Source: an uncultured Candidatus Saccharibacteria bacterium (GTDB taxonomy: Bacteria > Patescibacteriota > Doudnabacteria > UBA920). From it: DNA of 64,000 bases. Positions 2,641 through 59,812 of the stretch are shown here, one piece after another. Numbering within the stretch: position 1 is the first letter of the stretch; each line of letters begins with the position of its first letter. The stretch spans positions 28,785 to 92,784 of the forward strand of contig CAZFTX010000002.1 in NCBI GenBank assembly GCA_964521955.1, in the 5' to 3' direction. Below the pieces are notes generated by a model that made no database searches, was not told the origin of the DNA, and saw only the letters and a list, made by a program, of their open reading frames with translations. The translations under genes and the position numbers were made by a program.

Positions 2641-2970
2641 TTATTGAATTTTTTCTAACTCTTGAAAGTCTATTTTTACACCGGTTTTTTCAGCAATAGC
2701 TTTAACCCACGAAATAATAACTGTTTCTCTAGCTTTTAATTCTAAATATCTTTTATCAGAAAGTTCTAAATAATTATTAACACTAGACTTTAAAGCTTCC
2801 ATCCCCTGTTCTAGTTTATCCATTCTTCCTTCAACTTTATCTAACCTACCCTCCACCTTATCAAGCCGACCATTCACACCATCAAATTGCTTTTGAACGC
2901 CATCAAAACCCTCGGCCACCATAACCGCCAAGTCATCTAAAGTTACATTTTTTACTTTAGCATCATTCAT
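2641..2970 (-). CDS. Hypothetical coiled-coil protein with heptad-like repeats DKVEGRLDKVEGRMDKLEQ
   Basis: ORF track gives 2641..3012. A more plausible start is MNDAKVK at 2970. Confidence 0.35.
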   Translation of the reverse strand: MNDAKVKNVTLDDLAVMVAEGFDGVQKQFDGVNGRLDKVEGRLDKVEGRMDKLEQGMEALKSSVNNYLELSDKRYLELKARETVIISWVKAIAEKTGVKIDFQELEKIQ

Positions 2971-3040
2971 GTCTTTATTATACCATAAAAATATAAAAAT
3001 CCATATTTCCATGCTAAACTATATTTATTAACAGATCCAA

Positions 3041-3661
3041 ATGAACTTAATAAAATTCATCATTACCGGCCTACTTGTTACCTTAGCCGGGGAATTCCAA
3101 ATAAACATTTTAGTTCAACACTTACCAACAAACAAATACCTTATGGTTTTTGTGGTTTATGGAATTTTACTAAGTATTTTTTATACTCTAGGCAAATTTT
3201 TAGATAAAAAATTTGCTTCAAATAAATCCGATTTATTGTACTACTTCATAGCGGGATTTGTTGGACTTTTAATTGAGTGGTTTTTAATTGGCAACTCTCT
3301 TTACCAAAGTCCTTCGGCAAACCAAGCCGGCATGTTTGCCTGGTGGGCAGCGGTTTTTTTAGTTCCCAGAATTTTTACTAAACTCCCCGACCCTGCAACC
3401 CAAATTGTAAAAAAAAGGATTTATGCAGTTCTAATCCCTTACTCAATTATTTCCACAGTATTTGTCGCCCAACAAGTAGCAGTTCCGGAAATTCATAGAG
3501 TTGCAGCAACCGCACTTACAATGATGTTTGGTTTTATTTTATTAAATTATTTTTTAGTAAACTATTTAATTGCCCAAAATCCTCATTTGCAAAAAAGGTT
3601 ACAATATTTTTACAGGTTTTTAGTTATATTGGCTTTAGCACAATTAGTTTTAATAAAATAA
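3041..3661 (+). CDS. Hypothetical polytopic membrane protein (206 aa)
   Basis: Five or six hydrophobic segments. Confidence 0.45.
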   Translation: MNLIKFIITGLLVTLAGEFQINILVQHLPTNKYLMVFVVYGILLSIFYTLGKFLDKKFASNKSDLLYYFIAGFVGLLIEWFLIGNSLYQSPSANQAGMFAWWAAVFLVPRIFTKLPDPATQIVKKRIYAVLIPYSIISTVFVAQQVAVPEIHRVAATALTMMFGFILLNYFLVNYLIAQNPHLQKRLQYFYRFLVILALAQLVLIK

Positions 3662-3787: not shown

Positions 3788-4330
3788 CTAGAGCGCTAGT
3801 GACGTCTCAGCATTGACCGGGAAAAGCAGAGTATGCCCGATAGTCGCAAACCCGATCTCCCGGTTCATGACTCCACCTAGGACACTGAGAATATTCAAGT
3901 CGGTAGACCTTACCATAATTGTTAGTCCATCGACGTGGCCATTGTGCCCATCAGGTACATTTCCCAAACTCGACCAGACGCCTTCAATGAACACCCCCTC
4001 CAAAGGTGTCTCCTCCTCCACATCCTGACGACCTTCATTAATCCTTCGCACAAGCGCCATCAGATCAATCAGGATCGCGTTCATACCTCTACGTCTTACC
4101 TGCGCAGTATGTGGTAGCAAGAGCATCAACGACCGGTAAGACATGCTGGGAGACACAACTCTGATGTTGGGAACAAGAACACCCTCTGTAACAAGATCGG
4201 CAATTAGCCGTCGAGCCTTATCCGGAGAAACACCTACTGCTAAAACGATGTCATCGACTGAGGCTTGAGGGTTTCTCATGAAGGCCATCTGAACTTTCTG
4301 GCTGACTTCCTCCTTTTTTCCAGGCTTCAT
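3788..4330 (-). CDS. Hypothetical protein (180 aa) in GC-rich islet 1, with a possible HTH-like segment
   Basis: ORF with clearly higher GC than flanks. Start overlaps the upstream ORF stop (ATGA coupling). Candidate HTH segment DDIVLAVGVSPDKARRLIADLV. No family recognised. Confidence 0.4.
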   Translation of the reverse strand: MKPGKKEEVSQKVQMAFMRNPQASVDDIVLAVGVSPDKARRLIADLVTEGVLVPNIRVVSPSMSYRSLMLLLPHTAQVRRRGMNAILIDLMALVRRINEGRQDVEEETPLEGVFIEGVWSSLGNVPDGHNGHVDGLTIMVRSTDLNILSVLGGVMNREIGFATIGHTLLFPVNAETSLAL

Positions 4331-4851
4331 GACTGACGTCCTGTCTGACCGACTGCAACAAGTTGCCGAGCCGGAGGTAACAATAAAGTCTGCGATCCTA
4401 CTCCGGAGATTTGCGGCAACGATTCCACCGTAACCTCCAAAGCAATGCCCTGACGGTCAACCACAAGACATGCCCTCACCAGGCTTACAACCGCGGGCAA
4501 AATTTCGCTGGTAACTCCCCCCGGAAGCAAACCATTGATCTGATCAAGACTGTCCAGTGCTTCTAAGACAAGCTTGGTCTTCCGATTGGTCACCACCAAC
4601 ACAACTACCCAGCCCTCACCCACCAAACCATTTTTCTCTGGAAACGGCACTTTCATACCGACGATGGGCTTAAAACTGAATGTAGAACCTAAGTCCCACT
4701 TGCCTGTGCTGGCTTGTACTGCGAAGAACCAGGTTCTTTTACTGCTTCTTACCGGTCCAACTTCTTTCAGCACCTTAACTCTCTTTCTCCGCTTCTCACA
4801 ATCAAACTGACTTGCGGAAGGGAAGACAGTTATAAAAAAAATTACAACCAT
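4327..4851 (-). CDS. Hypothetical protein (174 aa, possibly shorter from M at ~4657) in GC-rich islet 1
   Basis: GGAAGGA about 5 nt before the ATG. Candidate promoter TTGACC-N18-TAAAGT upstream on the minus strand. The C-terminal half vaguely resembles a Roadblock/LC7-type fold (very tentative). Confidence 0.35.
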   Translation of the reverse strand: MVVIFFITVFPSASQFDCEKRRKRVKVLKEVGPVRSSKRTWFFAVQASTGKWDLGSTFSFKPIVGMKVPFPEKNGLVGEGWVVVLVVTNRKTKLVLEALDSLDQINGLLPGGVTSEILPAVVSLVRACLVVDRQGIALEVTVESLPQISGVGSQTLLLPPARQLVAVGQTGRQS

Positions 4852-25415: not shown

Positions 25416-27131
25416 CTATGGTGTTTCTGGAGGTGAACCAAGAGTTTGATCCAAAGGCTCTTGAGGCGTGAATTCTTCACAGCCCCTTGGGAAGCTAGCA
25501 CATTCTTGCTGAATTAAGTCTTCCCTATCAGGAGGTGGAGGAGGATCTTGAAAATTTGAACTGCCGACTGGTAAAACAGGAGAAATTTGAGCTGTTGCTA
25601 AACATGTGGACTGTTCTTTTAATACCCCAACTACTCCGCCATTTTGAGTCGCACCTTTAAACACAAACTGGTTAACTAAAGACTGGGTCAAACCGGAAAC
25701 AATGGTTTTAATAAAACTACTAGCATTAGCAATACCTAAGTTAAAGGCATTTTGAAAAGCTGCTTTTTGACTACTAACTATGCTGTTAATAGAGTTAGTT
25801 ATACCTTTGGACAACGTATCCCTGGGAGTTTTAAGACCGGAACTAGAAAGTTCTTTATCCGCAGCTTTTTCTGCCTCTGACTTAGTTGCAGCCGCTAAAT
25901 CTTCAAAATAAAGCCTCCAACCACTTTCAGAAGACATAAAGTCGCCCACTTTTGCTAACTTTTGGAAATATTTTGGATCGTTAGGGTCTAAAGTCCTTGG
26001 GTCAAAACCTAAATAAGTCTGAGCCTTGGCTTGAAAAACTGGTTTTAGGTCGTTGGGTTGTGCACCACACGAAAACTGGGGGATAAACCTTTTTACAATT
26101 TGCCTGTCCAACTGGTTAGAAACGTATTTTGTTAAATAATCCTGAGTATACTGTCCGCTAATAAGCGCGTCAGAATAAAACAAAAAGTTTGCTACCAAGT
26201 AATTCTGTTCAATTTTAGCAATAAACTTTGTTAAAAATTGGCTCATAAACTGAGCAGTCGCCGCAACCAACCCTTCTTTAACCGCATCCATTATAATTCT
26301 TGGAATATCACCAATAGTAATTGTCACATCACCGACTCCGAAAAGTGCATGGGCAGTTTTTATAAAAGCAAACCCTTTATTGTTTCCTTTTTCTGCAACA
26401 TAGTAGGGCGTAATTTGCGCATCGGTAATTTTGTACCCACCTGCTAAACGCGTAAGTTCTGTACCATAATCTCTCATGGAATCATTCACAGCCACCAGGG
26501 CTTGATATACGCTCGGCCAAGGATCCTGATTTTCTTCCACCGTAAACTTTTCAGCGTCGTTGACAACATTGCCGTAAGCCACAAAAGAACCAACCAAAGC
26601 TTTATGTAAAGCCAAAGCTTCACTTGGAACCGGGGTTTGATAAAGTTCTTTTAAAATAGTTTTAAACTCTGTATTTACTCTCTTTACTTCATTTAAGTCT
26701 TTGGAAAACAAGGCTTCGTTTGCTCCAGCAGTTTTACTGCCAAAAACCAAACCCAAACCTGCTGACTTAGACAAGTAATCCACAAAGCCTGCTTCTCCAC
26801 TATTTTCAACAACAATTAAATCTGAGGTTTTTATTTCCGGTTTTTTTACTGGTTCATTAGCTTTTAGTTGGGCGATCACTTCTTTTTCTATATCTGCTTC
26901 AGTAAAAAGCTCCTGGAAAAGCTCTTTACTTGCAACTGAGTCTATTTTTAAAGTCTCTAAATACTTAGCATAAGCCAACCGGTCAGCCTCTTCCTGAGCT
27001 TGTAGCTTTTTGTAGTCGTTCTGGTCTACATACCTAAAATCTGGTCTGCTTAAAAGCGAAACCAAACTTAAAATCAGTATTAAAACCACTGCGGTTACAA
27101 AGTATTGTTTTTGTTCTTTTGTTTCTAACAT
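25416..27131 (-). CDS. Hypothetical membrane-anchored/secreted protein with Pro-rich C-terminus (571 aa)
   Basis: N-terminal transmembrane segment. No catalytic motif recognised. Confidence 0.4.
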   Translation of the reverse strand: MLETKEQKQYFVTAVVLILILSLVSLLSRPDFRYVDQNDYKKLQAQEEADRLAYAKYLETLKIDSVASKELFQELFTEADIEKEVIAQLKANEPVKKPEIKTSDLIVVENSGEAGFVDYLSKSAGLGLVFGSKTAGANEALFSKDLNEVKRVNTEFKTILKELYQTPVPSEALALHKALVGSFVAYGNVVNDAEKFTVEENQDPWPSVYQALVAVNDSMRDYGTELTRLAGGYKITDAQITPYYVAEKGNNKGFAFIKTAHALFGVGDVTITIGDIPRIIMDAVKEGLVAATAQFMSQFLTKFIAKIEQNYLVANFLFYSDALISGQYTQDYLTKYVSNQLDRQIVKRFIPQFSCGAQPNDLKPVFQAKAQTYLGFDPRTLDPNDPKYFQKLAKVGDFMSSESGWRLYFEDLAAATKSEAEKAADKELSSSGLKTPRDTLSKGITNSINSIVSSQKAAFQNAFNLGIANASSFIKTIVSGLTQSLVNQFVFKGATQNGGVVGVLKEQSTCLATAQISPVLPVGSSNFQDPPPPPDREDLIQQECASFPRGCEEFTPQEPLDQTLGSPPETP

Positions 27132-27384
27132 ATTGATAGCCCTTTCAATTTTTCCGCCCTCTCCTGCTAAGGAGAGGGAAAGCCGGCAGGCTGGGGTGAG
27201 GTTTTTTTGAAAGGTATTCTCCTTTTATTATACCACATAAATAGCATAGCACATTGTTATTGTTTCTCTCTCCAATACATGGGAGAGGGTTAGCTTGTCC
27301 GCCGTAGCTTTAGCGTAGGAGGAGGATGAGGTCGAAACTAGATAAACCTCAATATTTACAAGCATTTTTCCATCTGCGCAATTC

Positions 27385-27413
27385 TTGACAAATCCCCATA
27401 AAAATGATATAAT
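27385..27413 (+). promoter_or_regulatory. Consensus sigma70-type promoter TTGACA-17 nt-TATAAT driving islet 2
   Basis: TTGACA at 27385-27390, 17-nt spacer, TATAAT at 27408-27413, read directly. Confidence 0.6.
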
Positions 27414-27515
27414 AGTGAATAATTTTATTGTTTGGAAATTGCTCATTTTGTGGTCAATTTTTTCTCAGTAACCAAGTAAGATCCAAGGAAACTGAGAAAC
27501 GGTAGGAGGTTTTTT

Positions 27516-27947
27516 ATGATTAAGAGGTTCAAGCTTGAACCGGGAATGTTCGGTGACGAACGGCAGTCGATCAAGGCCCTGGGGAGCGGCGGTAGCTGGG
27601 ACTTACGTTTTGGCCAAAACCGTGCGGACTGTTTTGTCCGCAACGCAAACTGGTACAACGGCCGCGGCGAAAAAATTGGACGAGGCGACTTGTCCTTACG
27701 CGATTTGTACGGGATTTCATGTTCAATCTTGGACGATGAAATCTTCATCATCGTTCCAGGACACGAACTGCCGCGAAGCGACAAAGAAGTCGCCGGCAAA
27801 GCCGAGTACGCCGTCATGTTCGGGGGAAAGTACTTCCTCGTGAACAGCAATGGTCAACGTGGTCAACACCGGGTGCGAGCAATGGACTTTGAGATCATCC
27901 CTCACACCAGCCTGCTCGGCAAAATGCAGCTGCCGGCCACCGCCTAA
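27516..27947 (+). CDS. Islet-2 protein A, hypothetical 143 aa (no recognised family)
   Basis: AGGAGG at 27504-27509 with a 6-nt spacer to the ATG. High GC. The overlapping antisense ORFs 27443..27850(-) and 27535..27843(+) lack signals. Confidence 0.5.
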   Translation: MIKRFKLEPGMFGDERQSIKALGSGGSWDLRFGQNRADCFVRNANWYNGRGEKIGRGDLSLRDLYGISCSILDDEIFIIVPGHELPRSDKEVAGKAEYAVMFGGKYFLVNSNGQRGQHRVRAMDFEIIPHTSLLGKMQLPATA

Positions 27948-27952
27948 CCTAT

Positions 27953-28323
27953 CCCAAGAGGTCACTTGGGAAAGCACGGGGAACTGCCACGTTCCCCTAC
28001 CCTTCTAAGTTCACTATTTCGATAATGAATTTAAAAGGGGGGCTAGCTCACAATGCTAAAAGCACTGAGCATAAACTAGACTCTCTTCGGTGCACAGCCG
28101 GGAGGGGGCGCCGCAAAAGGCGTTTAACTTATCTGTGCAAGACCCTTGTTTTAGCGCCACAAGGCGCTCAATAGCAATAACCCTCATAGCACGGAGGAAC
28201 GTACCATGTAAGTCACCCGGGCGTAGTCAAGCAGTATCCGACTACGCCCACCCTTCTAAGTTTGTCACTTGATGATAAGTTTAAAAGGGTAAAACCCTAT
28301 ATCTCAACGTTCAGGAGGAAACA
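27953..28323 (+). ncRNA. Hairpin-rich intergenic region with two hairpin plus ~40-nt direct-repeat modules (CCCTTCTAAGTT...TTTAAAAGGG) flanking a ~200-nt core with at least 5 hairpins. Candidate structured RNA or regulatory array.
   Basis: Hairpins at 27978-27997 and 28219-28249, each followed by a module (27999-28040; 28250-28290). Further hairpins include AGCGCC-acaa-GGCGCT and GCTCA...TGAGC. Confidence 0.35.
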
Positions 28324-28755
28324 ATGCCACAGGCATTCAAAGATTTTTACTGGGATTTGGCTAAGACGCTCTTAACCGGGCTCGGTTGGTCAGTTCTGGG
28401 ACTGCTCATTGGTCTCAATGAGACCTTTGACACCAGCAAGGTCCACGCTGACAACTTCTGGGCTGCTGCCATGTTCTACGGTTTATGGACGGGGTACAAA
28501 CTCGTCTACGGCACCGAGGGAAGACTACGCCTCATCAAATCAATGCTACTTATCCTGCCAATCATGGGGCTTTCAGCACTCTTTGTCCCGCGCTGGCTGG
28601 GCAACTCGCACATCCCTTTGGGGTGGTTTAGTTGGTTCATGACCTACGGGTTGTGGACTGCGGGCTTAGGTTGTGGAGCAGTCTTTGCCACAACTTTGAG
28701 CCTGACTGTAGCGGGGGTAAACCACCTTAGGCAGTGGTTTTCAGCGGAGAACTGA
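28324..28755 (+). CDS. Islet-2 protein B, hypothetical 4-transmembrane membrane protein (143 aa)
   Basis: AGGAGG at 28313-28318 with a 5-nt spacer. Four hydrophobic helices, Trp/Gly-rich. Confidence 0.5.
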   Translation: MPQAFKDFYWDLAKTLLTGLGWSVLGLLIGLNETFDTSKVHADNFWAAAMFYGLWTGYKLVYGTEGRLRLIKSMLLILPIMGLSALFVPRWLGNSHIPLGWFSWFMTYGLWTAGLGCGAVFATTLSLTVAGVNHLRQWFSAEN

Positions 28756-28769
28756 GACCTTCCGCCCTA

Positions 28770-28820
28770 CCCGGGAGTCGCGCAATGCGCGCGACTCCCG
28801 GGTATTTCTTTTTTATTTTA
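28770..28820 (+). terminator. Rho-independent terminator (14-bp perfect stem CCCGGGAGTCGCGC / GCGCGACTCCCGGG plus T-run)
   Basis: Read directly. Followed by the 18-bp perfect palindrome TTGTCGCAATTGCGACAA at 28849-28866. Confidence 0.75.
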
Positions 28821-28891
28821 AATTCTGACAAACAACATATCTGAACTTTTGTCGCAATTGCGACAAAATATTAGATATGAAAATACAAGTA

Positions 28892-30502
28892 TTATTCAAC
28901 CAATTCACCACCAAAAATTTGCAAAGCCCCGGCTAAAGCTTCTGTAGGAGAAGTGGCTTGGGAAGTTTCTTCTATCTTTTCAACACGAATAAAAACCCCC
29001 AATTTTACACCAGAAACTTGCTCTAAAACCTGATGAATCATTTGCTTGTTTTTCTGATTTTCCAAGTTTTGTTTATGAAAAGCAAACTTTGACCCTAAAA
29101 AAATTTTTCCATCATTTATTTCCAAAAGCTGACAACTTCTGACCATGTTAGCTAAAGGACTATTTAACTTTTTTAATTCAGAAATAAACTTTGGCCAAAA
29201 ACTTTCCACCTCTTCCCTAGAAATAACAACATTCTGTCCTGACTGAATCACTTCTTCCACCGCAACAACCTTAGGAATTTCCTCAACCAAAGCTTCCTGA
29301 GAAACACTCTTAATGTTTGACTGTGTAATGTTCTCATTTCTGTTATTGTTATTAGTTATAACTGATCCCCCGTTCCCCCCGCCCGCTCTTTTAAGTGCGG
29401 CTTCAACTGAAGCTAAAAGCATGGGTAATTCGGGATTTGGAGCGTCATAAAGTTCTTTATATGCCCTTAAAAAAAGCCTAATAATAAACATTAATTCTCC
29501 TTGGCTGAACTTGTCTGCAAACTCTAAAGCTTTCTGTCCATGCTCCCCTTCTAAGGAAGTTGCGTTTAAAGTAAGTTTAACGTTTAAAATTTTTCTTAAA
29601 TATTCCAAAAAATCCCGAGAGAAAACTAAAAAATCTTGACCTTTTTCTACCAACTCTTCGTAAAATCCGGGTAAATTTTTTGCTTGTCCGGTTTCAATTA
29701 ATTCCAATAAATTTTCACTTACTTTGATATCTACAAAACCTAGAAGTTGACGGCATTCTTCCAAAGAAGGATTAGCTCCCAAAGTTAAAATCTTGTCTAA
29801 CAAAGAAAGGGCGTCCCTAACACTGCCTTGAGCATTTTCTGCAACCAAAGAAATCGCAGCTAAATCTAAAGCTAAACCTTCTTTTTGCACAACGCTAGTT
29901 AAGTGTTCTTCTAAGTCTTTTTTGCTTAAAGCTTTAAAATCAAAACGTTGAGTACGGGAAACAATTGTAGCCGGGACTTTACTTATTTCAGTAGTCGCTA
30001 AAATAAAAATTGCATGCTTAGGCGGCTCTTCTAAAGTTTTAAGTAGGGCATTAAAAGCCCCTTTAGAAAGCATATGAACTTCGTCTATAATGAAAACTTT
30101 ATATTTCCCGGAGCTGGGAGCAAAACGAATATGTTCAATTAACTCCCGAATGTTGTCTACGCCGGTGTTAGAAGCTGCGTCTATTTCTAAAAGATCTAAA
30201 AACCTACCTTCAGTAATTTGTTTACAACTCTCACATACACCGCAAGCGTCACCCTCCTCCGTTCTTTGAAAACAATTCACTGCTTTGGCCAGAATTCTAG
30301 CCACCGAAGTCTTACCCACTCCCCGGCTCCCTGTAAACAAATAGGCATGAGCGGGCTCGCCTAAAGCGGCCTGGTTTTTTAAGGCTTGAACAATGTATTT
30401 TTGGTTTAAAACCTCAGCAAATGTTTGGGGTCTGTGTTTCCTGTATAGTACGGCCATAATCGTTTCAGAACTTAAGCACCTCCTATTTTTCAAACGAGCC
30501 AA
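28892..30502 (-). CDS. dnaX: DNA polymerase III subunit gamma/tau
   Basis: YRKHRPQTF, GSRGVGKTS Walker A, DEVHML. Likely true start at MAVLY (30457). Confidence 0.85.
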   Translation of the reverse strand: MARLKNRRCLSSETIMAVLYRKHRPQTFAEVLNQKYIVQALKNQAALGEPAHAYLFTGSRGVGKTSVARILAKAVNCFQRTEEGDACGVCESCKQITEGRFLDLLEIDAASNTGVDNIRELIEHIRFAPSSGKYKVFIIDEVHMLSKGAFNALLKTLEEPPKHAIFILATTEISKVPATIVSRTQRFDFKALSKKDLEEHLTSVVQKEGLALDLAAISLVAENAQGSVRDALSLLDKILTLGANPSLEECRQLLGFVDIKVSENLLELIETGQAKNLPGFYEELVEKGQDFLVFSRDFLEYLRKILNVKLTLNATSLEGEHGQKALEFADKFSQGELMFIIRLFLRAYKELYDAPNPELPMLLASVEAALKRAGGGNGGSVITNNNNRNENITQSNIKSVSQEALVEEIPKVVAVEEVIQSGQNVVISREEVESFWPKFISELKKLNSPLANMVRSCQLLEINDGKIFLGSKFAFHKQNLENQKNKQMIHQVLEQVSGVKLGVFIRVEKIEETSQATSPTEALAGALQIFGGELVE

Positions 30503-49805: not shown

Positions 49806-49985
49806 TGAGTGATAATGTGCAAATTAAAAATTGGCTTTAAAATGTCTAGCCACTTGCAATAGTTTATAGGAACTTTATGCTTTTGTCAAATAAACATAGG
49901 AGTAAAAACCAAGAAAAAATAATGATTTGATATATTGACAAATATAATATTTTGTGCTATAATATAACCTATTAACTCCTTTTAG

Positions 49986-55975: not shown

Positions 55976-56339
55976 AAGAATTAATTTGAGAAGACCAAAC
56001 CTACGGTTTTTTCTTCTCAATACTCATCTTTTTCCCTTAGCTGTTTCCTCGGCCTCGGAGTAAGTCCGCTGGCCTTAGAGCTATTAATTAATTTATTAAT
56101 TTGCACAATAAAAACTGATTATAGACATCAGTTTACGCCTACTTCGCTTGTTTAGGTACTCTCCCGAAACCAGTGGGAGTAACTTCCCTAACAAATCGAC
56201 AAAATTGAGTAATTCGTTCACAAAGTGTTTTGTGAATGGGTTTCTTATTCAATTGCTATAAATTATACCCTATTTACACCAAATGTCAAATGTGATATTT
56301 TACTTAGTCGTATCACAACGAAATCTAGGGAGGACCAGA

Positions 56340-56680
56340 TGGAGATATGTTATAAACTAGTATGGGAAGGGTCTAGAGGACGTGGTCCCGACAACCAAGT
56401 TTTGATTGGGTTGCAGGTCTACCGATACCTGCCACCGGTCGAACACATGTACCTTGAATTTCCAACCAAGAAATCAAAGGAGCAACCTGAGGAGGACATC
56501 TTTACCCCAACCTTCATAGTCACGGAATACAGAAACAGAGCTGACACAGGCGAAACAACCCTGTGCTTATTGCTTATCCAAGACGCGACCATGCCTCAAG
56601 AGCAAAAACTGCTTGAGCAAAGAGCTGTCATTCAAATTCTCCGTAAGGACTACGACTGGAAGTGGGGCAACCCCTACTAA
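56340..56680 (+). CDS. Islet-3 hypothetical protein (113 aa)
   Basis: GGGAGGA 4 nt before ATG (MEICYKLVWEG...). GC-rich. The N-terminal extension in the ORF track (from 56225) is AT-rich and lacks an SD. Confidence 0.45.
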
Positions 56681-59534: not shown

Positions 59535-59812
59535 TTCGTCCTCCTCAGGATGTTTTCTCACAAAAAAATAACTCCGAAATTCGGAGTTATATTACTGGGA
59601 GAAAAATATATTGATTACCGCTGTTTGGGCGGTTTTTTGTTCTGAAATTCTGTTTTATTGAATCTCTTTTCATGTAGTTCTTAAAAAGCAGAATACACCA
59701 ACTAAAACCTTATGTCAAATTTTTATCTGCGGATAAACGAATTAATACAAGATTACACTGATAAAAAGAACCTCGCGGACAAGCCGCGAGGCGAGAAAGT
59801 ACAAAGGAGTCT

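Follow-up and report, generated by a model that had tools for sequence, protein, structure and literature searches.

A probable strain-variable accessory-gene island beside dnaX in a Doudnabacteria chromosome, punctuated by a recurrent conserved hairpin

The subject of this study is a GC-rich islet in a 64-kb stretch of Doudnabacteria chromosome (Patescibacteria/Candidate Phyla Radiation, CPR), referred to below as the window. The region from 27244 to 28830 is best read as a ~1.6-kb horizontally acquired, strain-variable accessory-gene island at the junction of dnaX and the next core gene. It carries two small open reading frames, ORF1 and ORF2, separated by a structured spacer that contains two copies (R1 and R2) of a hairpin that we call R. 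This hairpin recurs in ~20 other metagenomic islands, where it separates unrelated, mostly unannotated genes. The islet is real and more than a chance cluster of signals; it belongs to a recurrent, apparently undescribed kind of hairpin-punctuated cassette island, and is neither a toxin-antitoxin module nor a canonical integron. The explanation that we favour, and to which we would give an even chance of being correct, is a hypervariable island of accessory genes that is expressed as a single unit and whose cassettes are joined by a portable RNA leader/punctuation hairpin module.

That the island has been inserted is clear from relatives that lack it. The islet is flanked by dnaX (28892-30502, minus strand) on one side and by the gene for a 571-aa membrane protein on the other; the names under which homologues of this protein are recorded assign the genome to Candidatus Doudnabacteria (Patescibacteria). 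In three more distant Doudnabacteria (L247, L248 and L250; 51-56% identity in the 571-aa protein), only 27-90 bp separate dnaX from the 571-aa homologue, and this empty site identifies the islet as an insertion confined to a narrow clade. Comparison with closer strains shows that the locus is also a mosaic. One contig from ENA (L001) has the same left flank as the window, 96-97% identical over 27132-27243, and a homologous promoter; all between 27243 and R2 is unrelated, a 166-aa RNA-polymerase alpha-CTD-like gene taking the place of ORF1 and the spacer, and from the R before ORF2 onward the two sequences are again 88-93% identical. The breakpoint lies at the 5' edge of R, and the L001 junction corresponds to R1 of the window joined to sequence 3' of R2. 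Another exchange is seen in two independent assemblies among the Logan contigs (L003/L005). Here the left flank is ~70% identical to the window, the ~1.1 kb from the promoter region to the R before ORF2 is shared (100% identity over 27278-28277), the ORF2 region falls to ~48% nucleotide identity, and the sequence from the terminator into dnaX returns to 96-98%. The breakpoints are at the R-leader/ORF2 start and at the terminator, and the ORF2 allele that they enclose, 137 aa long and 37% identical as protein, is a highly divergent variant inside otherwise 96-100% identical DNA.

Substitution rates tell a similar story. Synonymous divergence (dS) between the window and L001 is 0.2 for ORF2, far below the value of 1.0 for the adjacent core gene. 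This contrast and the block-wise mosaicism together indicate a recombining hot spot, whose blocks move independently of the surrounding chromosome. The ratio of non-synonymous to synonymous divergence (dN/dS) is 0.40-0.46 for ORF2 versus 0.07-0.16 for the flanking genes; selection on ORF2 is purifying but relaxed. Since the first gene can be swapped with ORF2 kept, and ORF2 with the first gene kept, the strains argue against an obligate two-protein pair.

The composition and signals of the islet largely agree with a preliminary description of this DNA, which had proposed a self-contained module. The islet has its own promoter and terminator and is compositionally foreign: GC content over 27500-28800 is 50-58% versus ~37% for the window, and GC at third codon positions is 0.66 in ORF1 and 0.64 in ORF2 versus 0.30 and 0.31 in the flanking genes (dnaX and the 571-aa gene). 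The consensus promoter reported earlier matches at 12/12 positions and additionally has an upstream extended -10 TG, while the two ideally spaced Shine-Dalgarno (SD) sequences lie 6 nt and 5 nt 5' of the ATG codons of ORF1 and ORF2, respectively. Two perfect hairpins, each abutting a ~41-nt repeat, and a palindrome beyond the terminator were likewise found as described. The terminator stem itself is present (28768-28804), with 16 perfect pairs (12 G-C) and not the 14 first counted; TTTCTTTTTT lies directly 3' of it. For the 386-nt spacer, described as structured, we count at least 8 hairpins and a folding energy of -136 kcal/mol versus -101 +/- 6 for shuffled sequences (z = -5.9). Other statements did not survive. 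The upstream 300 nt, said to be GC-rich, measured 35-40% GC, and 27132-27243 is the leader of the host gene, outside the islet. Neither the promoter nor the canonical SD is absent elsewhere in the window: further perfect TTGACA-N17-TATAAT sequences lie at 49935 (+) and, ahead of rpsL, at 56289 (-), and AGGAGG-N4-9-ATG is repeated at 59545 and 61156 (-). A minus-strand promoter scan of the islet returned only weak 9-of-12 sites (28307, 27438 and 27391), about as many as in shuffled sequences. The earlier observation as a whole is thus partly confirmed, and its interpretation partly supported.

R is what links this islet to others. A loose first repeat pattern (16 specified bases), run on collections of genome contigs and viral contigs, gave chance matches only among the matches listed; a stricter pattern applied to a metagenome collection retrieved 58 loci with ~25 distinct true copies of the hairpin. 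The consensus, ACCCTTCTAAGTTCATAAA-loop-TTTGTGAATTTGGAAGGGT, is a ~40-nt (40-44) hairpin of 18-19 bp with outer boxes ACCCTTC/GAAGGGT; R1 of the window has 16 pairs, two C.A mismatches and a UUCG loop. In 21 distinct copies, 96% of the pairs of the 18-pair helix can form, and 6 pairs show changes on both sides; 0/500 shuffles attain as much covariation as was observed. All 6 of these compensatory pairs lie in the inner stem, which the search pattern left unconstrained. Strandedness is also evident, with G.U or U.G pairs at five positions, one of which is G.U in 21/21 copies. With such pairs the hairpin is good only on the sense strand, which favours a role in RNA. The structured RNA proposed in the preliminary description is in this respect upheld, as a conserved and covarying element that appears to be undescribed. 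Rfam gave no relevant match in the window at the gathering threshold or at E<=10, and four R loci of the consensus type were equally without one at E<=1; nothing relevant to the R sequence, or to CPR cassettes with stem-loops, was found in the searchable literature.

A covariance model of R recovered further copies, including arrays of 2-3 R at a spacing of 540-1050 nt (L260, L269, L272, L279, L283/L310, L291 and L290/L306). Applied to all 64 kb of the window, the model recognises the two islet copies and no others, the next best scores being <=17 bits. R islands have 45-55% GC and the other genes of the same contigs 30-41%, and near-consensus promoters head the islands in L306 and L272. Similarity between arrays is limited to R (40-60 nt), their cargo being unrelated, and two loci with a common host flank (L277 and L279) differ in island content. 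Copies within an array are more alike than copies from different arrays (those of L306 are identical over 48 nt), and the loop tolerates large insertions, as in the 104-nt copies of L001 and L283. Two other identities for R were considered and set aside: as a dif/Xer site, because the arms are unlike the dif consensus and the loop varies from 4 to >60 nt, and as a CRISPR, because no more than two copies are present and ORFs lie between copies spaced 250-1050 nt apart. Separately, a longer hairpin with the same outer 14+14 nt as R (CCTTCTAAGTTCAT...ATGAGTTTAGAAGG; 36.5 bits) occurs in a 150-kb IMG/VR contig (L257, 3467-3530) and in ~10 Ga0209728 contigs; in L257, which is AT-rich and phage-like, it stands between genes that run in the same direction, without a preceding GC hairpin.

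The position of R follows consistent rules. Directly 5' of it, with a gap of 0-1 nt, is a GC-rich hairpin of variable sequence, and 20-90 nt 3' of it are an SD and an ORF on the same strand. Internal R copies neither contain nor adjoin a promoter, the neighbouring position being taken by the GC hairpin; in L001 and L272 a copy stands directly after the promoter. CCC[TA], able to pair with the 3' AGGG of R, is found <=30 nt downstream in 14/31 copies versus 12% in controls (p = 3e-6). For R2 of the window, the downstream ACCCU could pair with the 3' AGGGU of R to give an alternative small hairpin. In 6/31 copies a T-run and no ORF follows, so that R looks there like the intrinsic terminator of the array. 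The G.U pairs on the sense strand, the fixed orientation, the copies right after promoters and the terminal copies with a U-run all fit a function in the transcript.

We are thus able to outline how such an island might work. The islet would form one transcription unit, running from the consensus promoter to the strong terminator, with three cassettes: ORF1, a non-coding or ghost cassette (X, 28041-28218) and ORF2. Each junction would carry a bipartite RNA module, in which a cassette-specific GC hairpin ends the upstream cistron and R begins the next leader, and this pair of hairpins would punctuate the polycistronic transcript. Endonucleolytic cutting at or beside R, of the RNase III or RNase Y type, could release monocistronic mRNAs, each protected by R at its 5' end and a GC hairpin at its 3' end, while R with a U-run would serve as terminator of the array. 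As for the DNA, portable homology may be provided by the conserved blocks of leader, promoter and terminator, at which unrelated genes would be swapped in and out by recombination between strains and donors. Cassette X has no ORF with an SD; immediately 5' of its GC hairpin are a GGAGGA (28193-28198), 7 nt and an ATG-TAA (28206-28211), which suggests an emptied (ghost) cassette or a small RNA. A similar SD with ATG-ACC-TAG follows the first R in L001, and cassette X showed no similarity among the fetched loci, a search that left out near-identical strain contigs.

Nonetheless, several points weigh against this scheme. Processing, stabilisation and termination at R are proposed from sequence. 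The search pattern itself accounts for part of the invariance of the outer stem, and independent covariation comes from the inner stem only. The window copies are atypical, with a C.A mismatch and a spacing of 251 nt without an intervening ORF, unlike the other arrays. Breakpoints are not always at R, the window/L003 exchange beginning 30 nt inside ORF2 and ending at the terminator. Among 2.9 million viral contigs (IMG/VR), the strict pattern turned up no more than one or two plausible relatives of R, and this near absence leaves a phage source for the R module unsupported. For the other R-bearing contigs, clusters of flanking proteins gave function names and no organism names. Finally, R is conserved across unrelated contigs beyond what a generic RNase substrate would need, which hints at a specific partner protein, possibly a recombinase.

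Such a recombinase is at the centre of the main rival explanation, in which R serves as the site of DNA recombination in a site-specific system like that of integrons, and cassettes of leader, ORF, GC hairpin and R are captured and excised at R by an enzyme encoded elsewhere, as in clusters of attC sites lacking integron-integrases (CALINs). We consider it unlikely, notwithstanding a real resemblance. One strong promoter heads an array of promoterless, single-gene cassettes (window, L001, L306 and L272), compositionally foreign and mostly unannotated as integron cassettes are, and between the cassettes stand imperfect palindromes whose outer boxes are conserved and whose centres vary. R is the sole sequence common to arrays with unrelated cargo and is homogeneous within arrays, the 48-nt identity in L306 being an example. 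Its outer ACCCTTC...GAAGGGT fits the RYYY...RRRY pattern of attC R''/R' boxes, its loop takes large insertions as attC central regions do, and the L001 junction is exactly what an R x R deletion of cassette X would leave. The details of R itself point elsewhere. It has 18 contiguous pairs, with none of the bulged (extrahelical) bases, L''/L' boxes, unpaired spacer or central bubble of attC, and lacks the near-invariant AAC/GTT cleavage triplets of RYYYAAC/GTTRRRY. attC sites measure 57-141 nt; R, almost perfectly paired, measures 40 nt. The G.U pairs that mark its sense strand become A.C mismatches on the bottom strand, terminal copies appear to act as terminators, and the breakpoints of the ORF2 allele swap lie away from R. 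No integrase gene (intI) was found beside any array examined, the whole genome not having been searched; in the window, the neighbour 5' of the promoter is the conserved 571-aa core gene, which adjoins dnaX even in the empty-site relatives. An adjacent intI is optional for a CALIN.

A more speculative proposal, which we also hold to be improbable, is that R and its GC hairpin are the signature of an unrecognised gene-cassette platform of the CPR/Patescibacteria type. Such a platform would be integron-like, taking up and exchanging single-gene cassettes that include jumbo-phage genes, and would depend on a putative R-binding recombinase or an RNA-guided/RNA-processing protein, using neither attC nor IntI.

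By analogy, the island may be classed with three known kinds of system: integron-like arrays, intercistronic palindromes and the hyperplastic regions of phages. Intercistronic palindromes that act in mRNA include the REP/BIME elements of enterobacteria, the Correia/NEMIS elements of Neisseria and the RNase III sites in the early regions of T7 and SP82. These share with R a conserved hairpin in transcribed intergenic regions, co-oriented with genes and able to stabilise or process mRNA, some copies of which double as terminators. They differ in distribution: REP and Correia elements are present in hundreds of copies genome-wide, whereas R occurs within the 64-kb window only in the islet, travels with foreign cassettes, and has no linked RAYT or other transposase. 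In the hyperplastic regions of T4-like phages, promoter-early stem-loop (PeSL) mobile regulatory cassettes mediate modular shuffling (PMC2839356, PMC4122927). There too, short conserved stem-loop regulatory motifs flank small, mostly unknown ORFs and offer portable homology for shuffling, and indels or replacements between close genomes are bounded by the motifs, as is seen here in L001, L003 and L277/L279. PeSLs are composites of a terminator and an early promoter in phage genomes. R, by contrast, has no promoter of its own and sits inside a polycistronic unit, with a GC hairpin of variable sequence as its partner; it occurs in islands on the chromosomes of cellular, probably CPR-type genomes and hardly ever in viral contigs.

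ORF1 provides a link to phages. The earlier statement that neither protein matches a recognised family was wrong for ORF1 insofar as relatives exist, and right in that these are unannotated. A word-indexed protein search returned only ORF1 itself; exhaustive phmmer found 226 representatives at E<=1e-3, mostly of 130-170 aa, with the alignment core GQxR..N.GWYNxxGEKLGWGDLS..D..I...L..GExFI. Pfam, PHROGs, PADLOC and NCBIfam gave nothing for ORF1 or for 29 members of its family. The AlphaFold2 (AF2) model is confident (pLDDT 89) and has no known fold. A PDB profile search was set aside as not significant, since it gave only a 19-residue likeness to the RecA C-terminal WY..GEKIGQG motif (E = 0.13, single domain). 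The residues concerned (~31-51; window 27606-27668) are in the WYNxxGEKLGWG core, which resembles the C-terminal WYSYKGEKIGQG beta-hairpin of RecA with a score that is inflated for RecA fusion chains; the ORF1 homologue in L253 adjoins recA. Relatives of ORF1 occur in five IMG/VR contigs of 157-406 kb (jumbo-phage contigs) and in a 546-kb contig, within a run of small unknown ORFs and HNH and NUDIX genes. Others are in small operons or runs of unknown ORFs on contigs of ~53% GC, and one is a cassette in the R array L283 (hhalign probability 98.2%).

These relatives raise the possibility that the islet is a phage-derived moron or a degraded prophage fragment, composed of early or accessory phage genes that brought along their own promoter, RNase-III-type intercistronic hairpins and terminator, kept for superinfection exclusion or defence. 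The family's phage contexts, the compact promoter-gene-terminator architecture and the conserved intercistronic hairpins known from T7 and SP82 early regions would suit such an origin, and ORF2, a small and hypervariable membrane protein, would be typical of exclusion proteins. We nevertheless regard it as quite unlikely. No phage hallmark gene lies in or beside any island, no cassette matches PHROGs (0/10 tested), tblastn with ORF1 found no match in 50,697 phage records, and no viral relative of ORF2 was found. R, almost missing from the viral contigs, is also absent from all loci of ORF1 homologues examined outside R arrays, phage loci included. A moron origin therefore fits ORF1, and not R. 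As an observation of its own, an ORF1 homologue in L319 (~53% GC) lies among 13 small unknown ORFs with repeated intergenic hairpin blocks flanking genes, one of 96 nt (99% identical; 552-647 and 2243-2338) and one of ~95 nt (655-750 and 2958-3059), different from R in sequence and similar in design.

For ORF2, only three close relatives were found, among them P0003 and P0004 at 81-83% identity, and Pfam, PHROGs, PADLOC and NCBIfam gave nothing. The four transmembrane helices claimed earlier are predicted again, and the protein has 3 strong hydrophobic segments and further amphipathic ones; the AF2 model (pLDDT 49.8) is too poor for a structure search. The preliminary description had likened the islet to toxin/immunity, abortive-infection or type I/III RNA-antitoxin modules, with the structured repeat RNA as antitoxin for one of the proteins. 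Superficially this is attractive: a membrane protein and a small soluble protein are encoded on either side of a repeated structured RNA in one small, self-contained module, and a promoter, repeated structured RNA and small protein gene in a compact mobile module also make up type III systems (ToxIN, AbiQ, CptIN). Furthermore, an ORF1-family gene stands next to a small membrane-protein gene in three contexts (window, L253 and L283). Positive evidence for the idea was not found, and we judge it highly unlikely. ToxIN and AbiQ have tandem 34-36-nt repeats (type III repeats in general measure ~34-45 nt) directly 5' of an endoribonuclease toxin, whereas the islet has two dispersed hairpins 251 nt apart, with no tandem array (Tandem Repeats Finder, 27000-29000), and the same hairpin is a general intercistronic element that flanks unrelated genes elsewhere. 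ORF1 and ORF2 have no match to ToxN, AbiQ or any other PADLOC entry, nor to Pfam or NCBIfam, and ORF2 is a membrane protein. With 143 aa and 3-4 or more helices it is also much larger than the hydrophobic toxins of type I systems (<60 aa), which are paired with an overlapping antisense RNA. The idea is weakened further because sister strains have replaced ORF1 and ORF2 independently of each other.

The cargo of the other R arrays is similar in kind. Of 20 cassette proteins, 18 have no Pfam domain, the exceptions being the alpha-CTD protein and a PQ-loop/SemiSWEET-like protein. The cargo is best read as 'dark matter', partly of phage origin, given that the ORF1 family is shared with jumbo-phage contigs.

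The implications extend beyond this locus. Members of the CPR/Patescibacteria have tiny genomes and are obligately host-associated, and little is known about the routes by which they acquire and exchange accessory genes. The architecture described here is compact and recurrent, hypervariable between co-occurring strains, and at least 20 further islands in metagenomes share it. Should R prove to be a processing or stability signal, it would be a new RNA motif, simple to search for, by which expressed accessory genes of uncultured bacteria could be recognised; should it be a recombination site, it would define a new cassette-capture system. Either way, R can be used as a probe to retrieve strain-specific 'dark matter' genes from metagenomes, such as the ORF1 family (>200 clusters). 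The features of the islet and its borders are collected in Table 1.

Table 1. Features of the islet and its borders, in window coordinates.
Feature	Position	Strand	Basis
Host flank: leader of the 571-aa membrane-protein gene	27132..27243	-	96-97% identity to L001, in contrast to an unrelated islet interior; in L005, divergence in step with that of the host gene
CCCTCTCC/GGAGAGGG hairpin in the 571-aa gene leader	27158-27178	-	sequence
Islet left arm, 5' of the promoter	27244..27384	+	identity to L005 jumps to 100% at ~27244-27278
CTCTCC..GGAGAG hairpin in the left arm	27266-27288	+	sequence
GTCCGCCGTAGCTTTAGCGTAGGAGG motif in the left arm	27298-27335	+	recurs within the loop of the long R copy, L001
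Sigma-70 promoter TTGACA-17-TATAAT with extended -10 TG	27385..27413	+	homologous promoters at the same place in L001
ORF1 5' leader including AGGAGG (27504-27509)	27414..27515	+	sequence
ORF1, 143 aa, soluble	27516..27947	+	unannotated ~145-aa family
Two 3' hairpins of the ORF1 cassette: 27949-27974 and perfect GC hairpin 27978-27997	27949..27997	+	fold
R1, copy of the conserved R hairpin	27999..28040	+	cmsearch 56.8 bits, E = 5e-13; fold
Non-coding structured 'X' cassette	28041..28218	+	strong folding, no ORF with SD
Perfect 10-bp GC hairpin abutting R2	28219..28249	+	fold
R2 (28250-28290) with downstream ACCCU (28294-28298)	28250..28298	+	cmsearch 53 bits
SD (28313-28318) and ORF2 (28324-28755), 143-aa multi-pass membrane protein	28313..28755	+	hydropathy, 4-helix model
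Intrinsic terminator: 16-bp stem and T-run	28768..28818	+	conserved in L001, L002, L003
Palindrome that separates the islet terminator from the stop codon of dnaX (28892); probably terminates dnaX, judging from sequence	28836..28879	.	scan

The borders of the islet have peculiarities of their own. The segment 27132-27243 co-varies with the 571-aa host gene and is read from its sequence as the leader of that gene; TGgTATAAT on the minus strand (reverse complement of 27227-27235) is a likely extended -10 for this gene. The 571-aa protein is itself very divergent between co-occurring strains, with ~70% nucleotide and 69% amino-acid identity between the window (25416-27131, -) and L005 (37-1752), and dnaX, on the opposite side of the islet, is 95-98% identical between the same two. 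The leader contains a REP-like element at 27158-27200, composed of the hairpin listed in Table 1 and then GGGGTGAGG, and L003/L005 have another variant of the same kind at the same place (L003 860-925). The GTCCGCCGTAGCTTTAGCGTAGGAGG motif upstream of the islet promoter has a close copy in the loop of the 104-nt R copy (L001 5165-5205), and looks, from its sequence, like a small insertion of the hairpin type with a mobility of its own.

Promoters of three unrelated small operons or islands start alike, with TTGACAAAT(A/C)CCC (L253 4733-4761, L295 1036-1064 and that of the islet), which may be chance or a shared promoter type. Elsewhere in the window, the perfect promoter at 49935-49963 (+) (TTGACAAATATAATATTTTGTGCTATAAT) is directed away from rpsJ and reads into the 3' end of a glycosyltransferase gene on the minus strand, with no plus-strand ORF following; it may drive an antisense or small RNA, or have arisen by chance in AT-rich DNA. 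At 56289 (-), the perfect consensus promoter of the rpsL operon is overlapped by a 151-aa plus-strand ORF (56225-56680) within a locally GC-richer stretch, and the R model gives a weak partial match of 17 bits at 56216-56237. Lastly, the window contains a second compositionally foreign islet ('islet 1') at 3788-4851 (-), with two ORFs of 180 and 174 aa that overlap at their ends and have ~50% GC versus ~35% in their neighbours.

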